A stretch of DNA of 13,664 nucleotides, taken from UHGV virus genome UHGV-0143428; one strand, given 5' to 3'. The notes below the pieces were generated by a model, which was given only the letters and a program-made list of their open reading frames with translations, was not told the DNA's origin and did not search any database. Source of the DNA: a virus. A program made the position numbers and the translations under genes. Position 1 is the first letter of the stretch, and each line of letters begins with the position of its first letter. This document shows positions 1-13,664 of the stretch, piece by piece.

Positions 1-48
1 CGAGATAGGCTCCGGTCTCGTGGGCTCGGAGATGTGTATAAGAGACAG
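1..48. other. Illumina Nextera P7-side adapter (non-biological contig-end contamination)
   Basis: Bases 1-6 CGAGAT (end of P7), 7-14 AGGCTCCG (8-nt i7 index position; as recalled the reverse complement of Nextera index N720 CGGAGCCT), 15-29 GTCTCGTGGGCTCGG, 30-48 AGATGTGTATAAGAGACAG (Tn5 mosaic end). Genomic sequence begins at base 49. Confidence 0.9.
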
Positions 49-50
49 GG

Positions 51-80
51 CTAGGGAAGGCTAACCTTCCCTAGTTTTTT
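51..80. terminator. Perfect 10-bp inverted repeat (CTAGGGAAGG-ctaa-CCTTCCCTAG) plus T6, immediately downstream of the 355-aa gene stop; terminator-like hairpin
   Basis: Stem 51-60 / 65-74, loop 61-64, T-run 75-80 on the + strand. On the minus strand the U-run side would lie in the adapter-truncated region, so its function for the minus-strand operon cannot be confirmed. Confidence 0.4.
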
Positions 81-81
81 A

Positions 82-1149
82 TTAGATAAGATCTTCCTCA
101 TCATGATCAAAGCCATACTGTAGAGCTTCAGATAGCTCAATTTGCTTATTTAAGTGTAGATTCACTCGAACAGCAATCCATTTAGCTGGACTTCCCATAC
201 CTGCTATATCCCCTATAGCAGCATTTCTTATCATTGCAGCTCCCCAAGAGTCCTCCCTTTGATAATGTGGATACTCTGCCAAAATTGATTTCGCAGCTTC
301 AATGAACCCTTCTTTATTCATCCCAGGGCGGCGCTCGAAATACCATGAATCATTTAACGCTATATCAATTCTAGGAACATATCGCCCAATTATGTTGTCA
401 TACACTACTGAATGAATTGAACCATGATCGCCATAAATAGCGACATCACTTCCACCAATATTTTGATGCAATTCTCTCTCAATAACATCAATATATCCGG
501 ACTGTCCATTTTCACGGCAAAAATTTGTAACTGAACTAGGGAAGCTTGTTGCTAGCACACTAATTATGGCTTCAGGAATCTCAGTTCTAATCTGATTAAT
601 CGAATTTATTGCTGCAGCTGTTATAGCAGATACATTCCCTCTAATGTAGCCCAAATCTATGAAAACTATGGCATTTTCTGGAGAGTTCATCGATACTAGT
701 GACGTCAGGGTTTTATTAATGTCTGTATTTAGATTTCTAATTCTAAATGCAATTGAACCTTTAAGTTCCTCTAAAACCCTGGCTTGGATAGATATATCTC
801 TAAGTTTTGCTGAATCCGGCATCTGGACTACTGGAATAATATTATCATTTCTGGAACAAAACTCTATCCAGTTTTTAAAACCATTCTCAGGAGAGAGTAG
901 TTCGAAGCTTGACGCGCAATGATGAGAATTATCCTTTGTGACATCCAAAATAAATGGGAGATTACTCATCACTTCTAAACTTTTATCTAACGATACCTGT
1001 ATTTCTTCCGAGCGAGGCCATTTCCCCAAAGAAATTAAAGGTAATATTTTTTTCTTATTCTCATATGATAAATTATTCAGTCCGGTCATTTCTGCTGATC
1101 GTGTTCTTAGGGCTGGATAGTATGAGTAATTTTCAAAATATACTTTCAT
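82..1149 (-). CDS. Hypothetical 355-aa soluble protein, distal gene of the hotspot cassette; candidate P4 beta-type protein (unverified)
   Basis: Uninterrupted 355-codon ORF with a GGAGG RBS about 11 nt upstream of the ATG. The start lies 2 nt after the stop of the upstream 133-aa gene (TAA-AT-ATG), indicating translational coupling. About 37% GC versus about 55-60% in psu/alpha. No Walker A or other motif I can recognise by eye. It sits where P4 carries gop-beta-cII, between cos and int. Confidence 0.7.
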   Translation of the reverse strand: MKVYFENYSYYPALRTRSAEMTGLNNLSYENKKKILPLISLGKWPRSEEIQVSLDKSLEVMSNLPFILDVTKDNSHHCASSFELLSPENGFKNWIEFCSRNDNIIPVVQMPDSAKLRDISIQARVLEELKGSIAFRIRNLNTDINKTLTSLVSMNSPENAIVFIDLGYIRGNVSAITAAAINSINQIRTEIPEAIISVLATSFPSSVTNFCRENGQSGYIDVIERELHQNIGGSDVAIYGDHGSIHSVVYDNIIGRYVPRIDIALNDSWYFERRPGMNKEGFIEAAKSILAEYPHYQREDSWGAAMIRNAAIGDIAGMGSPAKWIAVRVNLHLNKQIELSEALQYGFDHDEEDLI

Positions 1150-1151
1150 AT

Positions 1152-1553
1152 TTAATTAGCCTCCGAATCGATATTTTCTGGTCGGCTTGCTGTTCTTGGC
1201 ATAGCGTTAATTTGGGGGTTCTGAGTAGCAAGATAAGCAGCTATACTTTCCATCTTCTCTTTCTGTTCTGAAGTTCTTGCAAGTTCTTTAATCAATTCTT
1301 TGTTTTCAGCCATCAAGTTTTGATTGGATTCATTATGACTCTTGATTACCTCCATATTACTTTTTATAACATTCGTGTGGTTGTTGCTAATTGCTTTAAT
1401 CGTTCTGTGTGTAAACCATCCAATAAGTAAAGCAGCTAACCATCCAGAACAAACGAGCAACCATTGTGAAATATCTTGGTTGCGGATGAAGCTAGTAGCA
1501 ATAGTGATTATGGTCCCAACAACGCCAATTAATCCATATACATGATTCAGCAT
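1152..1553 (-). CDS. 133-aa small membrane protein (two N-terminal TM helices plus charged coiled-coil tail); candidate toxin/effector of the hotspot cassette, possibly gop-type (unverified)
   Basis: Hydrophobic segments at about residues 6-23 (YGLIGVVGTIITIATSFI) and 31-47 (WLLVCSGWLAALLIGWF), followed by a K/E/N-rich helical tail. It is the first gene after cos, transcribed away from cos, and is AT-rich like its partner. Confidence 0.6.
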   Translation of the reverse strand: MLNHVYGLIGVVGTIITIATSFIRNQDISQWLLVCSGWLAALLIGWFTHRTIKAISNNHTNVIKSNMEVIKSHNESNQNLMAENKELIKELARTSEQKEKMESIAAYLATQNPQINAMPRTASRPENIDSEAN

Positions 1554-1780
1554 CCTTTAACTCTCTCATGCCACGAATTCTTAAGGATCTTGCGACACTG
1601 ACAAGAACCACCTTACATCAATCTATTTTTTGCATATTTTTCAGGATAGTGCCATCAAAAAAGACAGTTTTGGACCATAGGCCATAGATTTTCTTCATTA
1701 TGCTCCAATGTATTAACGAGGTATGTACTGAAGGCACTTTGACTACACAAATAATTAACTAACTTGTCGGTTTGCGCGCG

Positions 1781-1799
1781 GTGCTTTCCCCGCCTCGCC
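1781..1799. other. cos site: P2/P4-type 19-nt cohesive end sequence
   Basis: GTGCTTTCCCCGCCTCGCC at 1781-1799 is the reverse complement of GGCGAGGCGGGGAAAGCAC, the cohesive end of P2/186/P4 as I recall it. It is located just beyond the psu stop, as in P4. Confidence 0.8.
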
Positions 1800-1900
1800 C
1801 GCCCGCTTTGCGGGGCGGTTTTAATGCAGTTGCACTGACACGCTCAGACCGCGCCGGGAATGGCGCGGTTTGCAGAAAATGAGGCAGGAAAACGCATGCA

Positions 1901-1934
1901 AAGCCATGCACCTTATCGATGCATGGCTTTTTTC
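1901..1934. terminator. Intrinsic-terminator-like hairpin between psu stop and cos
   Basis: AAGCCATGCA (1901-1910), 9-nt loop, TGCATGGCTT (1920-1929), then a T-run on the + strand. It lies about 30 bp downstream of the psu stop codon (1965) on the opposite strand, so it is possibly bidirectional. Confidence 0.45.
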
Positions 1935-1964
1935 AGTAAAAACAGGCGGATTTTTCGGGGAGTT

Positions 1965-2537
1965 TTACACAGACTGACGTGATGCCAGTTCTGCACTTTT
2001 ACGCGAAAAAATCATGTTCTGCGCAGGGGTGAATTTTTCACGGCTGTCATCCACCGAAGCCGCGTCAGGCCTGAATCCGATGGTCGTTAAAATGTCGCTA
2101 TCCTGTGCGGAATAATTAATTTTTTCCCCCTTCGCAAGCCAGGACAGAAGGGCTTCACGCAGGGCATCTGTGGCACGCTGTATGGCACAGTTTCGGGCAA
2201 TGGCCGTCAGCTCACTGTAGCCCATCAGCTCCGGTGCCAGTGCGGCCGCCAGTGCTGTGCCGTGCTGCTGCATAAAATCATTCAGCCGCTCGCGGATGCT
2301 GATGTGCTGAACGGCTTCATGCGAACGAATATAACGACCGGCGGCCTGATTCACCTGCCATTTTCTGACTTCGATAATATTGCGTAATTCGTCCAGGCGA
2401 CTGACGTTTCTGCCTTCTCCTGACAGAAGCCGCAGATATTCCTGTTCGGCCGCTGCCAGCTCATTTTTGCGTTGCAGCCATGCTGCTTTGTTATTCTGAC
2501 AGGTGTCAAAGGCCTGCTGTAAGGCTGTGCTTTCCAT
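1965..2537 (-). CDS. psu: Psu, polarity suppression / capsid decoration protein (P4-type)
   Basis: 190-aa ORF starting MESTALQQAFDTCQNNK. Length and N-terminus match my recollection of P4 Psu. It is the last gene of the sid-delta-psu operon, adjacent to cos. Confidence 0.85.
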   Translation of the reverse strand: MESTALQQAFDTCQNNKAAWLQRKNELAAAEQEYLRLLSGEGRNVSRLDELRNIIEVRKWQVNQAAGRYIRSHEAVQHISIRERLNDFMQQHGTALAAALAPELMGYSELTAIARNCAIQRATDALREALLSWLAKGEKINYSAQDSDILTTIGFRPDAASVDDSREKFTPAQNMIFSRKSAELASRQSV

Positions 2538-2610
2538 CGTTATCTCTTTCTCATCATGCTGAAGAATAAAAATACGGTGTGCGGCGACGGCCGGTGTTAA
2601 CCGGCAGCCC

Positions 2611-3111
2611 TCATTCCAGACGCAGCGAATATGATTGTGTTTTTAACCGTACTGGCGGCAGTTCCTGTTTTTCATGCAGGCGTTCTGCCAGTTCGTCCGG
2701 CGTGACCGGGCGGACAATGAAGCGGTTGATGGTCTGAAGCGTTTTAAACACCAGACCACAGCCCGGATCCGTGCACACATAAAAACGCTCGGTGACTTCC
2801 TGAGACAGACGCCGCGATGTTCTTGACAGTGCAAGGCCTTTACATCTCCGACAACAATATCCGGTAACAAGCATTCTTTTCGGGCGTTTCATACCGCAGG
2901 AGGCTGACGTCAGTGAATCGCGGTATCTCTGTTTGCCTGAAATGTATTCCATTCCTGAATCTTTACTGTCAGAGAAAAAGCTTTCACTCGCTTCAAATGT
3001 CGCAGAGCAATAAATATTCCGGCACTGTGCAATCATTATCTTGGTGCCATCGTCCATGAAATGTGCGCGACGGGTGTGAGCAACATGTCCACACGACGGA
3101 CAGTAAATCAT
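2611..3111 (-). CDS. delta: Delta, late-gene transcriptional activator (tandem Ogr-type zinc-finger protein)
   Basis: 166 aa. Two Ogr-like Cys4 units (CPSCGH...CRNIYC near the N-terminus, and CCRRCKG...CTDPGC in the second half). Its start overlaps the sid stop (ATGA). Length matches P4 Delta as recalled. Confidence 0.85.
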   Translation of the reverse strand: MIYCPSCGHVAHTRRAHFMDDGTKIMIAQCRNIYCSATFEASESFFSDSKDSGMEYISGKQRYRDSLTSASCGMKRPKRMLVTGYCCRRCKGLALSRTSRRLSQEVTERFYVCTDPGCGLVFKTLQTINRFIVRPVTPDELAERLHEKQELPPVRLKTQSYSLRLE

Positions 3112-3842
3112 GACAGCAGCCCTCTGGCCTTAAGCTCTGCTCCCTGCTGGTCTATTTTGTCCTGCCACACCTTGCGCTGTGCCGGTGTGCCTGCCACCTC
3201 ATAATCCATGTGCGGGAGTGTTGCCGCTGACAGTCCGGTCAGCCGGAGAACCGGCTCGCCGGTGAGGCTGATTTGCATCTGTTTAATTTTCTGTTCCAGC
3301 GATGATTTCACCTGCTGCATGACAGCCTTTTCCGGTGCGACGTAGCCCTGATGGCCGGTGGTGTTGGCGAGCGGATTTTCCTGTACCAGAATGCTCAGAT
3401 GCATTGCCCGGACAAGCGCCTCACAGGTTTCATTCAGGGCGTGTTCCAGCTCATGCTCTGCATACAGACTCAGAAGGTGATGATGTGCCTTCCGGTAGGC
3501 GGTGGCCGTGCTGTCACACGCCCCTTTCAGGCGTTCACGTTCGAAATTCAGCACCACGGCCAGATTGTCATATTCCTGTACCAGCTCCCGGCGTGCCACG
3601 CGCTCAATGTGGCGCTGTTTCAGCTCGTCGCTCAGGACACCACCGGCTGCACGAAAGGCCGTGCGCCAGTCGTCAGCGTCGTTTCCGTCGGCCTGCGCCA
3701 GCGCATTTTTTTCCTGCTCTGCCCGTTCAATGGCCGTGACGGTCTCATCCATCAGGCGGGCGTTCTCAAGATGGGCGGCTCTGGCCTTTTCCAGTTGTGC
3801 CAGTGCGGGTTGCAGATATTCAGGGATAGTGTGGTCAGACAT
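3108..3842 (-). CDS. sid: Sid, capsid size-determination (external scaffold) protein
   Basis: The ORF is open from 3860, but the GAGGAG RBS sits 8 nt upstream of the internal ATG at 3842 (MSDHTIPEYL...), giving 244 aa, the P4 Sid length as recalled. It is a helical, Q/E/A-rich protein and the first gene of the late operon. Confidence 0.85.
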   Translation of the reverse strand: MSDHTIPEYLQPALAQLEKARAAHLENARLMDETVTAIERAEQEKNALAQADGNDADDWRTAFRAAGGVLSDELKQRHIERVARRELVQEYDNLAVVLNFERERLKGACDSTATAYRKAHHHLLSLYAEHELEHALNETCEALVRAMHLSILVQENPLANTTGHQGYVAPEKAVMQQVKSSLEQKIKQMQISLTGEPVLRLTGLSAATLPHMDYEVAGTPAQRKVWQDKIDQQGAELKARGLLS

Positions 3843-3914
3843 TTTCCGGCTCCTCGTCACTTCAGGTTAAGAAAATTGTGACGTACACCGGACAACAACA
3901 CGACGCATTGCAGA

Positions 3915-3932
3915 TGTGCCAGCCCTGACACA
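3915..3932 (-). promoter_or_regulatory. Candidate Delta/Ogr binding dyad (TGT-N12-ACA) of the sid late promoter
   Basis: TGTGCCAGCCCTGACACA. Its centre is about 80 bp upstream of the sid ATG, which would place a transcription start about 25 nt upstream of the ATG if the dyad is centred at -55, as in P2/P4 late promoters. The motif is short and could occur by chance. Confidence 0.3.
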
Positions 3933-4011
3933 GGAGACTCATCCTCAGACCGGCAAGCCAGGAAAAGGTCGCAGGAAAAACCGGCTTACTGTTTGTTTTT
4001 TTATATTTTAC

Positions 4012-4116
4012 TGTTCACCTCTGTTCACCTTAATAAAAAAGATAAGTAATACAGTAAGTTAAAGGGTGAACAATCGCAGTAATGACTGTTCACCGTCTGT
4101 TCACCACTGTTCACCC
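4012..4116. repeat. Iteron cluster (TGTTCACC octamers), ori-like alpha-protein binding region
   Basis: Direct copies of TGTTCACC at 4012, 4022, 4087, 4098 and 4109, and one inverted copy (GGTGAACA) at 4065. Flanked by AT-rich tracts. P4 alpha binds iterons of this type in ori and crr (recalled). Confidence 0.75.
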
Positions 4117-4219
4117 GTTGATGGGCTTTTTGTGCTGTTTACTACTGTTTGTTTTTATTAATTCGCCGGGAATGAATAAGAAGAAACGATTTGTATTTCA
4201 CTATAAAAATTACAAATTG

Positions 4220-4249
4220 CTTTAAGTGGCTTTAAATGACTTTAAGTGG
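4220..4249 (+). promoter_or_regulatory. Helically phased triple CTTTAA repeat / duplicated TTTAAGTGG upstream of vis (candidate operator/promoter element)
   Basis: CTTTAA at 4220, 4230 and 4240 (exact 10-bp phasing). TTTAAGTGG at 4221-4229 and 4241-4249. It is located about 150 bp upstream of the vis start in an AT-rich region. Confidence 0.35.
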
Positions 4250-4394
4250 AGATGAACAAAAAACACACAGCCATTGTAAGGCAGCCTGAACAAATCCCCC
4301 CTGTTGCGTCTGCTGAAAATATTCACAAAATAAAGCGCTACCCGAAGCCGGACGGACTTATCCGGTGCTGTATGGACATTAACGAGGTAGCCCG

Positions 4395-4661
4395 ATGCAA
4401 GCTGTTTTTTCTTCCCCGTCTCCCGCCCCAGTGACGCCACTGATGCCGCTGCCGGACATCACGCAGGAGCGTTTTTTACGTCTGCCGGAAGTGATGCACC
4501 TGTGCGGCCTGTCACGCTCGACCATCTACGAACTCATCCGTAAGGGGGAATTTCCGCCGCAGGTGAGTCTTGGCGGTAAAAATGTGGCCTGGCTGCACTC
4601 TGAAGTCACCGCATGGATGGCCGGGCGCATTGCCGGACGCAAACGGGGGTACGACGCATGA
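4395..4661 (+). CDS. vis: Vis/AlpA-family excisionase-type transcriptional regulator
   Basis: 88-aa ORF with the AlpA-family signature ([32 protein letters not shown]). GAGGT RBS 8 nt upstream of the ATG at 4395. An internal start at MPLPD cannot be excluded. Confidence 0.75.
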
Positions 4662-5059
4662 TGATGCCCGCTCTGCAAAAACTCCCTTTTTCTGGCTTGC
4701 CTTTTTCCGGCATTTGCGGATATAGTTTTTCCGCTGCCGCAAAATCGGCAGCCGGGCGTGAGAACCCGAGCAATTCACAGGCGACATATGACGCGCCACG
4801 CGTCTTTTTTTGTGTCGCAATCAATGCCACAGAGCGCCAGATTATGGTGTGGTGTGTGGTCAGTCGTGCAGATGGCATTCCGTGCATCCTGCCCGCGTCC
4901 GCTCATTATGCCGCAGAGTCAATGGTAGCTCAGGCGGGGCAGCCTCCGGGCTGGCCGGTATCCGTTAGAGCCGGTATTCTCACCCCCGTCTGGGCTATCG
5001 CCATCGAGCGTGAGAACTCCGGCGATAGCGTTATTTGCTATTCACAGGAGGCTGCCATC

Positions 5060-5257
5060 ATGGCTACAACCCTTACCCCCTCACACCCTGAATTTGTCTT
5101 TGTGTTTGCGGCTGTCCGTCGCGCAGACCGTCATCCCCGTATCTGTATGCTTCGCACCGTCGCCGGTGATGAACGCAGTGCCCGCCGTTCCCTTGTCCGT
5201 GACTATGTGCTCTCCCTTGCTGCCCGTCTGCCGGTGGTGGAGGTGTCCCGTGCGTAA
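5060..5257 (+). CDS. Small hypothetical protein (65 aa) of the leftward operon, translationally coupled to the epsilon-like gene
   Basis: An internal ATG at 5060 within the long 4613-5257 reading frame is preceded by AGGAGG 7 nt upstream. The stop overlaps the GTG start of the next gene. The upstream part of the long ORF is more likely RNA/leader. Confidence 0.4.
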
Positions 5258-5537
5258 TAAAAAAGCCCCTCAGACCGTCTCAGCGCGTCATGACGCCCGT
5301 GAACACCTCAGCATTGAGGCTTACCATAAGCTCAACCGCGCCAGCGCCGTATCCCGGTTTGTTGGGGGTGATTTGATTCACCGTGAACTCTCCGGCCTGC
5401 ATCAGCTCTACATTCCGCATATTTTCAGCTACCTGAATGAAGATATTGATTTTGTGCTGAATGAGCTGAAAGCCAAAGGCCTGTGCCGCGATTTTCTCGC
5501 CCAGCAGAAAGACCGGGGAGACAGGACGCATGTTTGA
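5250..5537 (+). CDS. Epsilon-like protein (P2-derepression factor position), about 95 aa, GTG start
   Basis: GTG at 5250 preceded by GGAGGTG 5-6 nt upstream, in frame through the stop at 5535-5537, which overlaps the ATG of the orf151-like gene. Size and position relative to orf151/alpha match P4 epsilon as recalled; the sequence identity is not verified. Confidence 0.5.
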
Positions 5538-5985
5538 TTTTCCCCAGCCCGGTGAGATTTACCGTTCTGCCGGTTTTCCCGATGTGGCCGTGGTCGGCAT
5601 TCTGGAAGACGGTATTCCGTGGGAAATGCCGTACCGCTGCCCGGACATTGTCTGGAACCCGTACCGCCGTAAATTCAGTATCCTTGTGCGTATCCTCGCT
5701 GACGGACGCACCACAGACATCCCGCTGGGGCGTTTTCTGCGGGAATTTACCTGTGACCGTCCTGACCTGTTTAAACGCAGCCCCGTAAACCGGCATTCGG
5801 TACTGAAAGAAATGGCCGGAGACCCGGAATTACAGAAATGGCGGGAAAAATATCTGGATATTTACCCGCAGGACACTGTTCCGGTCAGCCGGGCAGCACC
5901 GGTGGCGCGGGAATGGCGGGAAATTCCCCGCACGGAGCCTGACCCGGAAACCACCCCGGATAACAGTTACCGCAATTATCTGTAA
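5530..5985 (+). CDS. orf151-like protein (151 aa) of the alpha operon
   Basis: Exactly 151 codons. Its ATG overlaps the upstream gene's stop. It lies upstream of alpha, as does P4 orf151. Confidence 0.65.
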   Translation: MFDFPQPGEIYRSAGFPDVAVVGILEDGIPWEMPYRCPDIVWNPYRRKFSILVRILADGRTTDIPLGRFLREFTCDRPDLFKRSPVNRHSVLKEMAGDPELQKWREKYLDIYPQDTVPVSRAAPVAREWREIPRTEPDPETTPDNSYRNYL

Positions 5986-6120
5986 TTAAAAAACGACCCC
6001 CGAAAAATTAAATGTGCGTATTCGCGCAGGGATACGCACGTCTTCAGGAGACGCAGATATGCCTTATCAGTTAATGCAACCGGCACGGAATGCAGTCATC
6101 TGTCACAGGGAGAAAAGCAA

Positions 6121-6441
6121 ATGAAAACACCCTTACCGCCCGTCTTACGCGCTGCCCTTTACCGTCGCGCTGTCGCCTGTGCCTGGCTGACCGTGTGCGA
6201 ACGTCAGCACCGCTACCCGCATCTCACCCTTGAATCACTGGAGGCGGCCATCGCCGCTGAGCTGGAAGGCTTTTATCTGCGCCAGCACGGTGAGGAAAAA
6301 GGGCGCCAGATAGCCTGTGCCCTGCTGGAAGATTTAATGGAATCCGGCCCCCTGAAGGCCGCGCCGTCGCTGTCCTTTCTCGGGCTGGTTGTGATGGATG
6401 AACTCTGTGCCCGTCACATAAAAGCGCCGGTACTGCACTGA
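6121..6441 (+). CDS. Hypothetical 106-aa protein immediately upstream of alpha
   Basis: ORF with a GGGAGA RBS, ending 14 bp before the alpha start. Preceded by a 21-codon upstream ORF whose TGA overlaps its ATG. Confidence 0.55.
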
Positions 6442-6455
6442 AGGAGAACAACACC

Positions 6456-8789
6456 ATGAAAATGAACGTAACCGCCACCGTCAGCCATGCGCTCGGCCAC
6501 TGGCCGCGTATTCTCCCGGCGCTGGGGATTCAGGTGCTGAAGAACCGTCATCAGCCCTGTCCGGTCTGTGGCGGGAGTGACCGTTTCCGTTTTGATGACA
6601 GGGAGGGGCGCGGCACCTGGTACTGCAATCAGTGTGGTGCCGGTGACGGCCTGAAACTGGTTGAAAAGGTGTTTGGTGTTTCCCCGTCCGACGCGGCCGC
6701 AAAGGTGGCTGCCGTGACCGGCAGCCTGCCACCGGCTGACCCGGCAGTGACGACCGCCGCCGGTGCTGAAACAGACGCTGCCCGGAAGAACGCCGCCGCA
6801 CTGGCACAAACCCTGATGGCGAAAACCCGTCCCGGAACCGGTAACGCCTACCTGACCCGCAAGGGCTTTCCCGGCCGGGAATGCCGGATGCTGACCGGCA
6901 CACACAGAGCCGGTGGCGTGAGCTGGCGCGCCGGTGACCTTGTGGTGCCACTGTATGACGACAGCGGCGAACTGGTTAACCTTCAGTTAATCAGTGCTGA
7001 CGGCCGTAAGCGCACCCTGAAAGGCGGGCAGGTCAGGGGCACCTGTCACATCCTTGAAGGACAGAATCAGGCCGGAAAACGTCTGTGGATAGCGGAGGGA
7101 TACGCGACCGCACTTACCGTGCATCACCTGACCGGTGAAACGGTGATGGTGGCGCTTTCTTCCGTGAACCTCCTTTCTCTGGCCAGCCTTGCCCGGCAGA
7201 AGCATCCGGCCTGTCAGATTGTCCTTGCCGCAGACCGTGACCTCAGCGGTGACGGCCAGAAAAAAGCCGCCGCAGCCGCAGATGCGTGTGAGGGCGTTGT
7301 TGCCCTGCCGCCGGTCTTCGGTGACTGGAATGATGCCTTCACGCAGTACGGCAGGGAGGCCACCCGTAAGGCCATTTATGATGCCATCCGGCCACCGGCT
7401 GAAAGCCCGTTCGACACCATGAGCGAAGCGGAGTTTTCCGCCATGAGTACCAGCGAAAAGGCCATGCGTATCTATGAGCATTACGGCGAGGCGCTCGCGG
7501 TCGATGCCAACGGCCAGCTTCTGTCCCGCTATGAAAATGGTGTCTGGAAGGTGCTGCCACCACAGGACTTTGCCCGGGATGTGGCCGGGCTGTTTCAGCG
7601 TCTGCGCGCGCCGTTCTCCTCCGGGAAGGTGGCCTCCGTGGTGGACACCCTGAAGCTGATTATTCCGCAGCAGGAAGCCCCCTCCCGCCGCCTGATTGGC
7701 TTTCGTAACGGCGTGCTCGACACGCAGAACGGCACGTTCCACCCGCACAGTCCGTCACACTGGATGCGCACCCTGTGCGATGTGGATTTCACCCCGCCGG
7801 TGGACGGTGAAACGCTGGAGACCCACGCCCCCGCGTTCTGGCGCTGGCTTGACCGTGCCGCCGGTGGCCGTGCGGAAAAACGCGACGTGATTCTGGCCGC
7901 ACTGTTTATGGTGCTGGCAAACCGCTACGACTGGCAGCTCTTTCTGGAGGTGACCGGTCCCGGCGGCAGCGGCAAAAGTATCATGGCCGAAATAGCCACC
8001 CTGCTGGCCGGGGAGGATAACGCCACGTCGGCCACCATTGAGACGCTGGAATCCCCGCGTGAACGTGCCGCGTTAACTGGCTTCTCACTGATACGCCTGC
8101 CGGACCAGGAAAAATGGAGCGGCGACGGTGCCGGACTCAAGGCCATCACCGGCGGCGATGCGGTGTCCGTTGACCCGAAATACCGGGATGCGTACTCCAC
8201 GCATATCCCGGCGGTGATTCTGGCCGTGAACAATAACCCGATGCGCTTCACCGACCGCAGCGGCGGCGTGTCACGCCGGCGGGTGATTATTCACTTCCCG
8301 GAACAGATAGCCCCGCAGGAGCGCGACCCGCAGCTTAAGGACAAAATCACCCGCGAGCTGGCGGTCATCGTGCGTCACCTGATGCAGAAGTTCAGCGACC
8401 CGATGCTCGCCCGGTCACTGCTTCAGTCCCAGCAGAACTCAGACGAGGCGCTGAACATCAAACGGGATGCCGACCCGACGTTTGATTTTATCGGCTATCT
8501 GGAAACCCTGCCGCAGACCAGCGGCATGTATATGGGGAACGCCAGTATCATCCCGCGCAATTACCGTAAATACCTCTATCACGCCTATCTGGCCTACATG
8601 GAGGCAAACGGCTACCGGAATGTACTCAGTCTGAAAATGTTCGGGCTGGGGCTGCCGGTGATGCTGAAGGAATACGGACTGAATTACGAGAAGCGCCATA
8701 CCAAACAGGGGATACAGACCAACCTGACGCTGAAAGAGGAAAGCTACGGCGACTGGCTGCCAAAATGTGACGACCCTACAACAGCCTGA
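6456..8789 (+). CDS. alpha: Alpha protein: bifunctional primase-helicase with C-terminal origin-binding domain
   Basis: 777 aa, the P4 alpha length as recalled. N-terminal zinc motif CPVCGG...YCNQCG, TOPRIM-like EGYATALTV and LAADRD, Walker A GPGGSGKS at 7951-7974, and Walker-B-like acidic residues. AAGGAG RBS 8 nt upstream of the ATG. Confidence 0.9.
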   Translation: MKMNVTATVSHALGHWPRILPALGIQVLKNRHQPCPVCGGSDRFRFDDREGRGTWYCNQCGAGDGLKLVEKVFGVSPSDAAAKVAAVTGSLPPADPAVTTAAGAETDAARKNAAALAQTLMAKTRPGTGNAYLTRKGFPGRECRMLTGTHRAGGVSWRAGDLVVPLYDDSGELVNLQLISADGRKRTLKGGQVRGTCHILEGQNQAGKRLWIAEGYATALTVHHLTGETVMVALSSVNLLSLASLARQKHPACQIVLAADRDLSGDGQKKAAAAADACEGVVALPPVFGDWNDAFTQYGREATRKAIYDAIRPPAESPFDTMSEAEFSAMSTSEKAMRIYEHYGEALAVDANGQLLSRYENGVWKVLPPQDFARDVAGLFQRLRAPFSSGKVASVVDTLKLIIPQQEAPSRRLIGFRNGVLDTQNGTFHPHSPSHWMRTLCDVDFTPPVDGETLETHAPAFWRWLDRAAGGRAEKRDVILAALFMVLANRYDWQLFLEVTGPGGSGKSIMAEIATLLAGEDNATSATIETLESPRERAALTGFSLIRLPDQEKWSGDGAGLKAITGGDAVSVDPKYRDAYSTHIPAVILAVNNNPMRFTDRSGGVSRRRVIIHFPEQIAPQERDPQLKDKITRELAVIVRHLMQKFSDPMLARSLLQSQQNSDEALNIKRDADPTFDFIGYLETLPQTSGMYMGNASIIPRNYRKYLYHAYLAYMEANGYRNVLSLKMFGLGLPVMLKEYGLNYEKRHTKQGIQTNLTLKEESYGDWLPKCDDPTTA

Positions 8790-8837
8790 CCCACCTGACC
8801 GGCATCTGCCGGTCTTTTTTTATCCCGACATCCCCCG

Positions 8838-9115
8838 AAGGTGAACAATCCACTGTTCACCCTTCACCGTATATTCACCCGTTATCACACTGAAATTAAA
8901 AGAGAAAAACGAAAGGTGAACAGTGTGAACAATCAAATCAAAAAAAACTTTTTTCTTCCTGAGTGATTTCAGTGCGGAGGATTAATCACCGGTATGAGTC
9001 ACACCGGCAGAATGCCGGAGGTGAAGAATCGAATGTTCACCCTTCACCCATTATTCACCACCTATCACTCTGAAATAAAAGGAGAAAACAGAAAGGTGAA
9101 CAGTGTGAACAGTTC
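8838..9115. repeat. crr-like cis replication region: two ~97-bp direct repeats (about 85% identical, period 180 bp) each carrying several iterons and followed by an A-run/T-run block
   Basis: Repeat A at 8838-8934 and repeat B at 9018-9114. Each contains GGTGAACA, TGTTCACC, CTTCACC, ATTCACC and the terminal GAAAGGTGAACAGTGTGAACA. A7/T6 tracts follow at 8938-8954 and 9120-9136. Confidence 0.75.
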
Positions 9116-9326
9116 TTTCGAAAAAAAATTTTTTATGTGGATAAAAGATGCACTGGTTTGGATCCGAGCTACGGATCCAAACTTACTGATTAAAAATGAT
9201 TTAACTTTCCGATTTATTGATGGGCTGAAAATAGATTGGTCAGAAAAACAGTGGGGGCACAAAAGGGGGCATATTTCATTGTTGTGTTTTATTATTTGTT
9301 TTTTATCATTAACTTATTTTGATGTT

Positions 9327-9346
9327 TGAGTCCGGCCTTCGCACCA
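9327..9346 (+). other. att core: 20-bp copy of a tRNA 3' end (T-arm/acceptor/CCA), tRNA-Leu (leuX)-like
   Basis: TGAGTCCGGCCTTCGCACCA matches, with one missing G, the 3' end of E. coli tRNA-Leu(CAA) as I recall it (..TTCGAGTCCGGCCTTCGGCACCA). Upstream sequence is AT-rich and not tRNA-like, so this is a core repeat (attR-type) rather than a full tRNA gene. Confidence 0.6.
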
Positions 9347-9359
9347 AAAGTATGTAAAT

Positions 9360-9384
9360 AGACCTCAACTGAGGTCTTTTTTTA
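9360..9384 (+). terminator. Rho-independent terminator (tRNA-type terminator on the chromosomal side of the att core)
   Basis: AGACCTC (9360-9366), loop AACT, GAGGTCT (9371-9377), followed by T7 (9378-9384). Confidence 0.7.
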
Positions 9385-9459
9385 TGCCTGAAATCCAGTG
9401 TTTATCTATCTTTCCCGCTATATTAACTCTCTCAAGGTCAACCGATATCAACGTACATC

Positions 9460-9477
9460 TACCAACATATGTTGGTA
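9460..9477. promoter_or_regulatory. 18-bp perfect palindrome TACCAACATATGTTGGTA in the integrase promoter region, plus a third half-site
   Basis: Perfect dyad at 9460-9477. An additional TACCAACA half-site at 9511-9518 lies just upstream of the int RBS (GGGAGGG). Candidate Int arm-type or repressor site. Confidence 0.45.
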
Positions 9478-9531
9478 CAGATGATGGTATTTCCGGTTCG
9501 ATAATGCTTGTACCAACAGGGAGGGAATACG

Positions 9532-10797
9532 ATGGCATTAACAGATATCAAAGTCAGAGCAGCCAAGCCAACGGATAAGCAATATTAGCTGACTGATGGT
9601 GGCGGTATGCATCTGCTTGTCCATCCAAATGGTTCTAAGTACTGGCGTTTGCAGTACCGTTATGAGGGAAAGCAAAAAATGCTGGCACTTGGGGTTTATC
9701 CTGAAATCACACTAGCGGATGCCAGAGTACGTCGTGACGAGACGCGTAAGCTGCTTGCGAATGGCGTCGATCCGGGAGACAAAAAGAAAAATGATAAGGT
9801 TGAACAGAGTAAAGCACGAACCTTTAAAGAAGTCGCGATTGAGTGGCATGGCACCAATAAAAAGTGGTCTGAAGATCACGCCCATCGTGTGCTAAAAAGT
9901 CTTGAAGATAATCTTTTTGCAGCGCTTGGTGAACGTAATATCGCTGAGTTAAAAACTCGAGATTTATTAGCACCTATTAAGGCCGTAGAAATGTCTGGAC
10001 GTCTTGAAGTGGCCGCTCGTCTTCAGCAGCGCACTACAGCCATCATGCGCTATGCAGTGCAAAGTGGGTTAATTGATTATAACCCGGCACAAGAGATGGC
10101 TGGGGCGGTTGCTTCCTGTAATCGACAACATCGTCCCGCGCTTGAATTAAAGCGCATCCCTGAGTTGCTTACAAAAATAGATAGCTATACTGGTAGGCCG
10201 CTAACCCGATGGGCGATAGAACTCACTTTGCTGATCTTTATTCGGTCCAGTGAGCTGCGTTTTGCTCGTTGGTCAGAGATCGATTTCGAAGCGTCTATAT
10301 GGACTATCCCACCGGAGCGGGAGCCTATTCCTGGAGTGAAACATTCCCATAGAGGCTCAAAAATGCGTACAACGCATCTAGTGCCTCTTTCAACGCAAGC
10401 TCTTGCAATTTTAAAGCAGATAAAACAGTTTTATGGGGCCCATGACTTGATATTTATTGGTGATCACGATTCGCACAAACCCATGAGTGAGAATACGGTA
10501 AATAGTGCGTTACGGGTCATGGGGTATGATACAAAAGTAGAGGTTTGTGGTCATGGCTTTCGAACAATGGCCTGTAGTTCATTGGTCGAATCAGGTCTGT
10601 GGTCTCGTGATGCTGTTGAACGTCAGATGAGCCACATGGCGCGAAATTCAGTGAGGGCCGCGTATATCCATAAAGCAGAGCATCTGGAAGAACGGCGATT
10701 GATGCTACAGTGGTGGGCCGATTTTCTGGATGTAAACAGAGAAAGGTTTATCAGTCCATTTGAATATGCAAAGATTAATAATCCATTAAAACAGTAA
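9532..10797 (+). pseudogene. int: P4-family tyrosine integrase with an in-frame amber codon at codon 19 (N-terminally disrupted; 396-aa ORF remains from an internal Met)
   Basis: ATG at 9532 with RBS encodes MALTDIKVRAAKPTDKQY, then TAG at 9586-9588, then in the same frame LTDGGGMHLLVHPNGSKYW... This is the conserved P4-type integrase N-terminus interrupted by a stop. The downstream ORF 9607-10797 carries the integrase catalytic region (R..H..R..Y type C-terminus). Confidence 0.8.
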
Positions 10798-11197
10798 TCA
10801 TCCCGGGCAAATGCCCGGGAATTATTCTAGGATTATTTTCTTTGTTAAAAAAGACAAACGGTATTAACTGATGTATTTACTATTTACCGCTCCCTGCAGG
10901 GGGGATTATCAGAATCCGCGGTTATTCATTATTTATATACATTCAATAAAAAAGTAACCTCATAAAAAATCCTGTACTCACAGGGTGATGCGGGATAACT
11001 GACGTAAGGAGTGCTGCAGGGATTTGATGGTCCCTTGTGCTGATATGAATACGGATATTTTATACAGAATACTTTTCAGTACAAGCGACTGTATTACAGT
11101 CTGCCATATATGATTACCTGTGATCAGGAAGAATAAGTGGCTGAGGTTTCAAACTGTCTGCCGGTATATTCCTCTCTCCCTTAAAAACCATAACAGG

Positions 11198-12420
11198 TTA
11201 GTTATCTTCGTCTGTCAGCGGATTGAATGGCGGTATATTTTCAGTACAAATACCGGTCATCCACTGAAAAATACCTGCGAAATGACGGGCACTGATTTTT
11301 CTACTGACGGGCTGATGAGACGTTATGTCACTGGCGGTAATAATCAGTGGCACACTGTAGCCTCCCTGCACATGACCATAATGATGAACAGGATTGGCAC
11401 TGTCGCTGACCGACAGCCCAAGGCCAGAAAAGTAAAGCATGGCGAAATGACGTGAGTACCGGCGAAGGATACCATCAAGCTGGCCAAGAAAGTTATCCAG
11501 TTTACTGATGCTGGCGAGGTAACAGGCAATTTTTCGGGGATACTGCTCCAGGTAATTATTCGGCTAGGAGTTAAGGCTGTCACACGGATTTGGATGAGAA
11601 CCCATCATGTGCAGGAAAATTATCTTCGGAGAGGATGTATCCGCCAGCGCACGTTCTGTTTCCTGTAACAACAGTTTGTCATCTGTTTTACGGGAAGCGA
11701 AGCTGCCTTTCTTGAGGAAAGTGGCATGCTCCGCATCAGAAGCAATAACAGAGATGCGTGTGTCATGCTCCCCCAGTTTTCCTTGATTGGATATCCACCA
11801 TGTGCTGTATCCTGCTTTTGCTGCCAGCGCCACCACATTGTTGCCGGAATCAGGGTTCTGCTCATAGTCATAAATCAGTGTCCGGCTCAGGGAAGACACT
11901 GTACTGGAGGCTGTCGAGGTATAATCGTCAATAAATAAACCGGGTGCCGTATTCAGCCACGGTGTGGTTGGTACGGGATAGTCATACACTGACATATAAT
12001 CCCTGCGCACACTCTCACCAGTGACAATAACAATCGTATCATATAACGGTGCTCCCGGCTGGATTTTCCAGTTGTCAGCCCCGTGCTACTCAGTTGTTCA
12101 TAACGCTGCATTTCACGTAATGTGTCAGTTGTCCCCACAACTGTTCCTTTAACCATCCGCAATGGCCAACGGTTTACAGAGCATAATACGAATAGCCGTA
12201 GAGCCAGCCAGTTACGGTGGTCGCGATGGTGTGTCCGCCAGAAAATCACCACGAATACCAGAATCGCGGCACTGACCAGAAAATGATAAACAGGAAACAC
12301 GGGGCGGTTCACTTTGCTTTCTCCTGTAGTGTTTTCTGTAGGTTCTGAACCGGTTCTAGCGGGGTTGTGAGGCTGATGGCAATCGCCGGGCTCTTCCTGC
12401 ATGTTACACTGGTACTGCAA
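11198..12420 (-). pseudogene. Frameshifted sulfatase-family (phosphoethanolamine-transferase-like) membrane protein pseudogene
   Basis: Adjacent minus-strand ORFs in different frames: 11953-12420 contains a hydrophobic TM segment; 11564-12010 contains sulfatase-type motifs (RRDYMSVYDYPV, FLHMMGSHP); 11344-11583 and 11198-11440 continue in other frames. Boundaries are approximate. Confidence 0.5.
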
Positions 12421-12780
12421 GAGGGGGCCTTCGCTCCTCTGACATTACTCAGTATTTTCACTACTACACCCCATCTGCCATCCATAACAACCGATTCACC
12501 CCCTCGCGAGGCGTTGTTGCCCGTCACCCGGACAGACACCGTTATGGACTTCTCTTGTTGCACGATCGATCAATTGTTATGCATGCTGACACCACAACCC
12601 CGGTGGGTATGACCGATGCCTTTCTCACTCTCTTCCCGGTCATCGTCGGCCTTCCCCGTTATTGTGGCGTGTCAGCACCCTCGACGGCATTTCGATGGCT
12701 GCTCAGTGTTCACTCACGTTACGGCCCGCATAACCCGTTGACTTCCTGAAGAAGTCGTTTCAGGGAGAGATTCAGCCCTT

Positions 12781-13110
12781 TTGTTACCTCCTGGACCGCT
12801 TCTTGTCCTTCCAGTCGGAGCGAGAGTTAGCCGGGGCGGACTTTCACCGACGGAAAGATCGTGCATTTCAAGGCACACACAACAATATCTGCGAGCGTGC
12901 TATCCGTCCGGTCGTTATGGGACGAAAGGCCTGGTTGTTCGCTGGTTCACTGGTGGCCGGGAACCGCGCGGCACAGATAATGAGCCTTCTGGGAACCGCA
13001 GTCTGGAGCCACATGCTTGGCTGACGGACGTCCTGACGCGTCTGCCGGAGTGGCCGGAGGAGAGGTTGGCTGAGTTACTGCCTCTTGAGGGCTTTACCTT
13101 CTTCGGGTAA
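12781..13110 (+). mobile_element. IS66-family transposase 3' remnant (C-terminal about 100 codons, frameshifted, lacking the DDE domain)
   Basis: Frame 1 (12803-13024) reads NNICERAIRPVVMGRKAWLFAGSLVAGNRAAQIMSLLGTA; frame 2 (to 13110) reads PHAWLTDVLTRLPEWPEERLAELLPLEGF. Together these are the conserved IS66 TnpC C-terminal block, split by a frameshift near 12990-13020. No upstream catalytic region is present. Confidence 0.6.
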
Positions 13111-13614
13111 GTGATACCTGCCGTCAGGTGTTTGTGCACCGGGCCATAACCTGCAGTTGGGAATTGAACGCCTGACAACAGGAAATGAGCTAGAGCAGTA
13201 AACACGCGGGCTGACAATGGGTCAGAATATGAGTTAGCCCGGCGTTATTCCTGGGGTCAGTACTTCAGATCTAGCCTCCGGTACCAGACTAGCTAGCCCC
13301 TACGCAACCAAATAAATCAACCATCGTCAGAGTGCAATCGTTCATATACACTGTCGGTGATGCGCTAAAAAATGCGTTAATGTTGAGTTCCTCGAACCCT
13401 TACCAATTAAGGGACATAGCCAGATACGCAACTGGCTGATGCAAGCAGTCTAATGTCTTTAGATCCGCTGGCCTGCGGGCATGACAATGTCAAACAGTCA
13501 AAGATTGTGGCGTTGACGGTCAGTCTTGGGGACAAAAAAGCTCAGTATTCTCGTTGGCAACCAGATAATTTAACAGTTGATGCTGAAACGAAATAGGCAT
13601 CTTGGTTCTGTAAT

Positions 13615-13647
13615 GCCAGTCAGTTAAGCAACTGACTGGCTCTTTTT
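13615..13647 (+). terminator. Strong rho-independent terminator with no upstream ORF over 60 codons
   Basis: GCCAGTCAGTT (13615-13625), loop AAGC, AACTGACTGGC (13630-13640), then TCTTTTT (13641-13647). Confidence 0.6.
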
Positions 13648-13664
13648 CGGGGCTGTGGGGTATT

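Follow-up and report, generated by a model that had tools for sequence, protein, structure and literature searches.

A Nextera i7 adapter at the left end of a metagenomic contig carrying a phage P4 prophage at leuX

The window, i.e., the whole stretch of DNA analysed here (13,664 nt), starts with 48 nt of a synthetic Illumina Nextera i7 (P7-side) adapter carrying index N720, which is a technical artefact and not biology. It is highly probable (about 90%) that the adapter was left on a low-coverage contig, and that a phage P4 prophage integrated at leuX was truncated at a coverage dead end, 6 nt before the end of its cII gene. The left contig end is thus technical and not a boundary of the element, as had been proposed in a first-pass annotation made from the letters alone; in support of this, the window is an entire low-coverage contig with a SPAdes-style name, and the genomic sequence continues leftward in its relatives.

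The adapter at the contig tip

The window is the whole of contig NODE_336_length_13664_cov_5.454993 of the ENA metagenome assembly ERZ1755458 (L138) and is identical to it over 13,664 bases. This contig was reached through the exact sequence of the 777-aa alpha protein. SPAdes contig names state k-mer coverage, and the SPAdes-style name of NODE_336 gives a value of 5.45. Two Logan contigs encoding the same alpha protein (L139 and L140) were ruled out as source runs, their identity to the window being 99.4–99.5%.

Direct reading and a script check resolved bases 1–48 into CGAGAT + AGGCTCCG + GTCTCGTGGGCTCGG + AGATGTGTATAAGAGACAG, comprising the following segments:

1–6, + strand: CGAGAT, the 3' end of the P7 flow-cell segment in the Nextera i7 adapter (layout from PMC6265951)
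7–14, + strand: i7 index AGGCTCCG, N720 (index table, PMC7589761 Appendix B)
15–29, + strand: Nextera transposase adapter/Read 2 primer segment GTCTCGTGGGCTCGG, exact, single occurrence in the window
30–48, + strand: Tn5 mosaic end AGATGTGTATAAGAGACAG, 3' end joined to genomic DNA, exact, single occurrence in the window

The published Nextera i7 adapter consists of CAAGCAGAAGACGGCATACGAGAT-NNNNNNNN-GTCTCGTGGGCTCGGAGATGTGTATAAGAGACAG, the middle part being N8 (PMC6265951). Of the 24-nt P7 segment CAAGCAGAAGACGGCATACGAGAT, the final six bases (CGAGAT) fall inside the window, and the other 18 lie beyond the contig end. The reverse complement of the 8-mer at 7–14 was computed by script as CGGAGCCT, and the index table gives N720 as ...CGAGAT-AGGCTCCG-..., with CGGAGCCT as the sample-sheet form (PMC7589761 Appendix B). 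The i7 side is indicated by GTCTCGTGGGCTCGG located directly 5' of the mosaic end, where the i5 side would have TCGTCGGCAGCGTC. The adapter is oriented as at the end of a library fragment, its 5' part being outermost and the mosaic end adjoining the insert. The 19-nt mosaic end was found once in the window with up to three mismatches allowed and not once in 200 shuffles, and the 15-mer GTCTCGTGGGCTCGG occurs only at 15–29. Other Nextera or TruSeq adapter stretches of at least 10 nt were not found in the window, save two isolated 10-mer chance matches. The proposal that bases 1–48 represent P7-side Nextera adapter read-through is supported by the published adapter and index sequences.

The limit between adapter and genomic DNA was located by megablast searches of window 1–2000 and of the whole window against 5,426 complete Escherichia coli genomes. 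Window 48–2000 was matched by 39 of these genomes at 99.4–99.7% identity, while bases 1–47 had no match in any of the 5,426; in the whole-window search, every full-length match likewise started at query base 48. Comparison with one of the lysogens (L001) and with P4 revealed that base 48 (G), the final base of the mosaic end, is by chance also the P4 base, so that BLAST alignments begin at 48 and the provably foreign part comprises bases 1–47. The advice to trim the first 48 bases before any annotation or submission consequently stands in full for bases 1–47, while the ambiguity of base 48 makes trimming of either 1–47 or 1–48 appropriate.

Adapter tips of this kind are found on other public contigs. 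IMG/VR was scanned for the 34-mer GTCTCGTGGGCTCGGAGATGTGTATAAGAGACAG, and at least 120 contig stretches (loci L012–L131) carry it. Among the IMG/VR matches listed, the 34-mer points inward and lies no more than 60 nt from the stretch end in 123 of 124 occurrences, the modal class of nucleotides beyond it is 13–15 (14 in the window), and index AGGCTCCG is present in six occurrences. Most of the adapter-tipped stretches among these listed matches come from one dataset, 3300045988, and a second small peak is seen at 42 nt beyond the 34-mer, exceeding the adapter itself. The junction pattern between adapter and genome had no match in IMG/VR. The genomic 37-mer at 49–85 matched three metagenome contigs, being internal in all of them, and none was the source; it had no match in GTDB representative genomes. 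A literature search on adapter-contaminated contig tips yielded no specific usable source. Overall, the adapter tip is a common and well-understood contaminant.

Phage P4 prophage and its right boundary

BLAST comparison with the phage P4 genome (NC_001609) aligned window 48–1799 with P4 1752–1 at 99.94% identity and window 1800–9346 with P4 11624–4078 at 99.3% identity. The two are collinear over 9.3 kb, including gop, beta, cos, psu, delta, sid, the cI region, epsilon, alpha, and crr. On sequence grounds, what the first-pass annotation had called an island is phage P4 itself, integrated at leuX. The following features were assigned, those from psu to alpha on the basis of Pfam, the genes called on contig L138, and the P4 annotation:

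49–54, + strand: P4 cII remnant, last sense codon GGC and stop TAG (P4 cII CDS 1746–2540, - strand)
51–80, + strand: cII rho-independent terminator, stem 51–60/65–74 and T-run 75–80 (NC_001609 1720–1749, mapped by BLAST)
82–1149, - strand: beta, 355 aa (Pfam Beta_protein 4e-56; PADLOC beta 8e-188; DNA identity to P4 99.94%)
1152–1553, - strand: gop, 133 aa (PADLOC gop 4e-70; P4 annotation)
1799–1800, no strand: joined cos ends of P4, coordinate 1 adjoining 11624 (BLAST against NC_001609)
1965–2537, - strand: psu
2611–3111, - strand: delta
3108–3842, - strand: sid
4395–4661, + strand: ORF88
4658–5257, + strand: cI region
5250–5537, + strand: epsilon
5530–5985, + strand: ORF151
6121–6441, + strand: ORF106
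6456–8789, + strand: alpha, 777 aa
9328–9346, + strand: attR core GAGTCCGGCCTTCGCACCA, marking the right limit of the P4 prophage (19 nt; the attP/leuX core has 20, with one additional G)
13611–13664, + strand: first 54 nt of IS4 (start of K-12 IS4, L135 7591, corresponding to window 13611)

A total of 52 differences from the P4 reference were found, with about 27 substitutions in alpha (6584–8693) and nine differences around psu and its downstream flank (1944–2289). Only one mismatch with P4 is present in the 1,752 bp of the gop-beta part, which, compared with the differences in the core, makes the accessory cassette more conserved than the core in this element.

At the right boundary, the attR core retains 19 of the 20 core nucleotides and is followed by K-12-type sequence downstream of leuX. 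The same one-G deletion is present at attR of nine other P4 lysogens at leuX (L001 (21279), L136 (15235), L002–L005, and L009–L011), and attL keeps the full core. This common deletion hints at either shared descent of the lysogens or a systematic outcome of recombination.

Beyond attR, identity to K-12 is 99.8% over window 9324–11038 (3' end of leuX through intB) and 100% over window 11033–13664 (2,632 bp, yjgX to IS4). IS2K, located between intB and yjgX in K-12 MG1655, is missing from the window, with the empty site at about 11033–11038; 6 nt (11033–11038) are common to both K-12 alignments, as expected of an empty IS2 target site. The integrase encoded at 9607–10797 is a K-12-type intB pseudogene, which belongs to the neighbouring KpLE2/PR-Y element and is distinct from P4 int; it should not be mistaken for the integrase of the satellite. 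The full intB frame opens with ATG at 9532, but a TAG at 9586–9588 breaks it, so that a 396-aa ORF from 9607 is left; the homologue in NZ_CP075640 is intact (421 aa). Likewise, fragmented phosphoethanolamine transferase ORFs at 11564–13217 on the - strand correspond to the K-12 yjgX pseudogene, and the annotation of NZ_CP091756 records a frameshift and an internal stop in yjgX. A tRNA scan of the window found no tRNA, which fits the location of leuX beyond the left end, with only the 3' core held in attR. Up to 32 sites per E. coli genome, annotated as IS4, share the final 55–57 nt of the window.

Missing genes and the cause of the left break

The genomic part of the contig starts at P4 coordinate 1751/1752, 6 nt before the end of cII. 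The cII homologue of lysogen L001 ends at the same base as window 54, and the terminator that follows is labelled in NC_001609 as "put. rho independent terminator of transcription of cII". P4 1753–4077, i.e., 2,326 bp comprising cII (264 aa), int, and the int-side attP arm repeats, is absent from the window, and attL within the tRNA-Leu gene (leuX) also lies beyond the left contig end. Since the element is P4 proper, the missing part (2,326 bp) is known with single-base precision.

Identical genomic sequence runs on leftward in 39 complete E. coli genomes, three metagenome contigs, and phage P4, so that the continuation, which the first-pass annotation had suggested seeking on other contigs, was found in genomes of relatives, in metagenome contigs, and in P4. 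The gene order in NZ_CP075640 and NZ_CP091756 is ahr, tRNA-Leu, int (422 aa), cII, beta, and gop. The identical beta protein was found in 6,939 collection blocks, and 10 contigs encoding it were inspected. All 10 carry a 264-aa cII gene and an adjoining integrase gene; in L002 the latter is broken into two reading frames, and the other nine encode an integrase of 418–422 aa. The P4 integrase is annotated with 440 aa. A cII homologue is also present under the match in all of the 25 complete E. coli genomes listed. In relatives, cII is annotated as a "sce7726 family protein" and is recognised by PADLOC as cll (E = 3e-113). The earlier expectation that a third cassette gene following the 355-aa gene, the satellite's own integrase, and the tRNA are missing from the window was borne out in all three respects: relatives carry P4 cII of 264 aa after beta, int next to cII, and, in the annotated genomes, tRNA-Leu leuX beyond int. 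By comparison with these relatives, the source strain probably carries the same cII-int-leuX arrangement.

The genes gop, beta, and cII form a hotspot cassette of P4, reported to be an anti-phage system (PMC9122126). In the window, the PADLOC gop_beta_cll system has complete gop and beta genes, and cII is represented by 6 nt owing to the contig end. As cII was cut off for technical reasons, the gop-beta pair does not warrant classification as a two-gene or "incomplete" system.

The adapter was most likely incorporated as follows. Read 1 of a short Tn5-tagmentation insert would run through the insert into the i7 adapter, i.e., into the mosaic end, CCGAGCCCACGAGAC, index N720, and ATCTCG; window 1–48 is the reverse complement of such a Read 1 read-through. 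The reads were untrimmed or incompletely adapter-trimmed before a de Bruijn assembly of the SPAdes type. At the left end, genomic reads with enough overlap to bridge onward would have been absent, and the sole remaining k-mer path would have been a read-through fragment with a Tn5 cut at base 49, so that the contig would have run 48 nt into the adapter and halted at the read end. Upon mapping, read-through reads would be expected to be soft-clipped at window base 49, with the clipped part being CTGTCTCTTATACACATCTCCGAGCCCACGAGACCGGAGCCTATCTCG. At a well-covered position, an adapter branch would form a short low-coverage tip, clipped in the de Bruijn graph; its survival at a contig tip would require the continuing genomic path to be missing or weaker.

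This scheme suggests that the adapter is likely a symptom of the left break rather than its cause, and that the break itself was probably caused by low coverage in an AT-rich stretch. The earlier claim that the island was cut for technical reasons thus holds as regards its technical nature, while the adapter itself appears as a symptom of the break. The GC content of cII is 33.7%, with 28–38% in 100-nt windows, compared with 50.4% for the whole window, and a strong bias against low-GC regions has been described for Nextera XT (PMC6796507). An under-sampling of cII such as occurs with Nextera XT could have taken place here, the kit presumably being Nextera XT or another Nextera-compatible preparation with the same index set. 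At a k-mer coverage of 5.45, the Lander–Waterman model predicts about 0.1–8 gaps per 13.7 kb as read length and minimum overlap vary, and a 2–3-fold local drop in coverage would give 0.5–2.5 expected gaps inside cII alone.

The two ends of the contig differ in type. The right end is a repeat-type break (repeat collapse) and holds exactly 54 nt of IS4, the k-1 bases kept at such a break, which implies that the final k was probably 55. The 48 nt of adapter are shorter than the 54 nt of IS4, and the left end has no shared genomic sequence; it is thus best read as a dead end and not as a stop at a shared node. The length of 48 nt was also considered as the k-1 of the assembler, which was rejected since the IS4 end gives 54 nt. 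As a counterpoint, k = 55 with abundant adapter k-mers would predict a stop after 54 nt and not 48. The stop after 48 nt fits a read end, although partial trimming of the P7 tail could be an alternative; many of the adapter-tipped contigs among the IMG/VR matches listed stop 5–7 nt past the index, for which partial trimming of the P7 tail is likewise a possibility.

Other explanations of the left end were also considered. The break could be a branch in the assembly graph, caused by a second P4-like element or by co-existing E. coli strains diverging at beta/cII, with the adapter tip having merely outlasted graph clean-up. Several P4-like elements are indeed present in many E. coli genomes, window 1–2000 matching at 1–6 places per genome and the whole window at as many as 33; the identical beta protein is often found on short draft contigs, the longest being below 5 kb in about 1,090 of the 6,939 collection blocks, and the sample was assembled as a metagenome. 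However, a break at a repeat or branch keeps the k-1 shared bases, as the 54 nt at the IS4 end illustrate, and not an adapter, whose presence at the tip implies that no incoming edge other than that of the adapter was retained. Moreover, the breakpoint lies inside the gop-beta-cII cassette, away from the boundary of the hotspot. We therefore consider this reading unlikely.

It could also be supposed that the P4 prophage of the source strain truly ends near this point, owing to a deletion or rearrangement of cII-int, and that the adapter masks the real junction. Only 6 nt of cII are left in the window, and degraded P4 copies do exist, such as L008, which lacks the part from psu through alpha, and L007 and L011 with insertions or losses. 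Nevertheless, cII follows beta in 10 of 10 inspected contigs and 25 of 25 listed complete genomes, not a single non-P4 genomic base separates P4 position 1752 from the adapter, and a fragment end at a Tn5 cut says nothing about a genomic junction. A true end is thus extremely improbable; that the adapter tip hides a structural difference, the P4 copy without cII-int-attL being an immobilised remnant, is also very improbable. Finally, as the 19-nt mosaic end goes back to the ends of Tn5, bases 1–48 might be taken for something biological, e.g., the end of a Tn5-family transposon. The mosaic end is, however, preceded, in the exact order of the kit, by the P7 tail, an index from the catalogue (N720), and a synthetic 15-mer; none of the 5,426 E. 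coli genomes contains a match to the sequence, and it is terminal and inward-pointing, as are 123 of 124 occurrences among the IMG/VR matches listed, leaving a biological origin with practically no probability. The adapter-tipped coverage dead end therefore remains the preferred explanation.

Comparison with known systems

The value of the adapter finding is purely practical. The underlying element is the textbook satellite phage P4, so nothing biologically new is involved. The finding also shows that the Nextera reads behind assembly ERZ1755458 had their adapters trimmed in part or not at all, so the tips of its other contigs deserve the same check.

Compared with the Illumina Nextera i7 (P7-side) adapter, the window is identical in 42 fixed bases and the 8-nt index, with order and orientation kept, and differs in that its copy is truncated, 6 of the 24 P7 bases being present. 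Adapter-tipped public contigs in IMG/VR have the same placement of the tip, and the contig analysed here, which comes from ENA, differs from them in nothing substantial. In relation to the leuX-intB-yjgX-IS4 region of K-12 (KpLE2/cryptic prophage PR-Y), the window is distinguished by the presence of P4 at leuX and the absence of IS2K. With phage P4 (NC_001609/X51522), it shares the gene order, the joined cos ends, and the attP core at the right boundary, while P4 1753–4077, carrying cII, int, and the attP arms, is lacking because the contig ends there.
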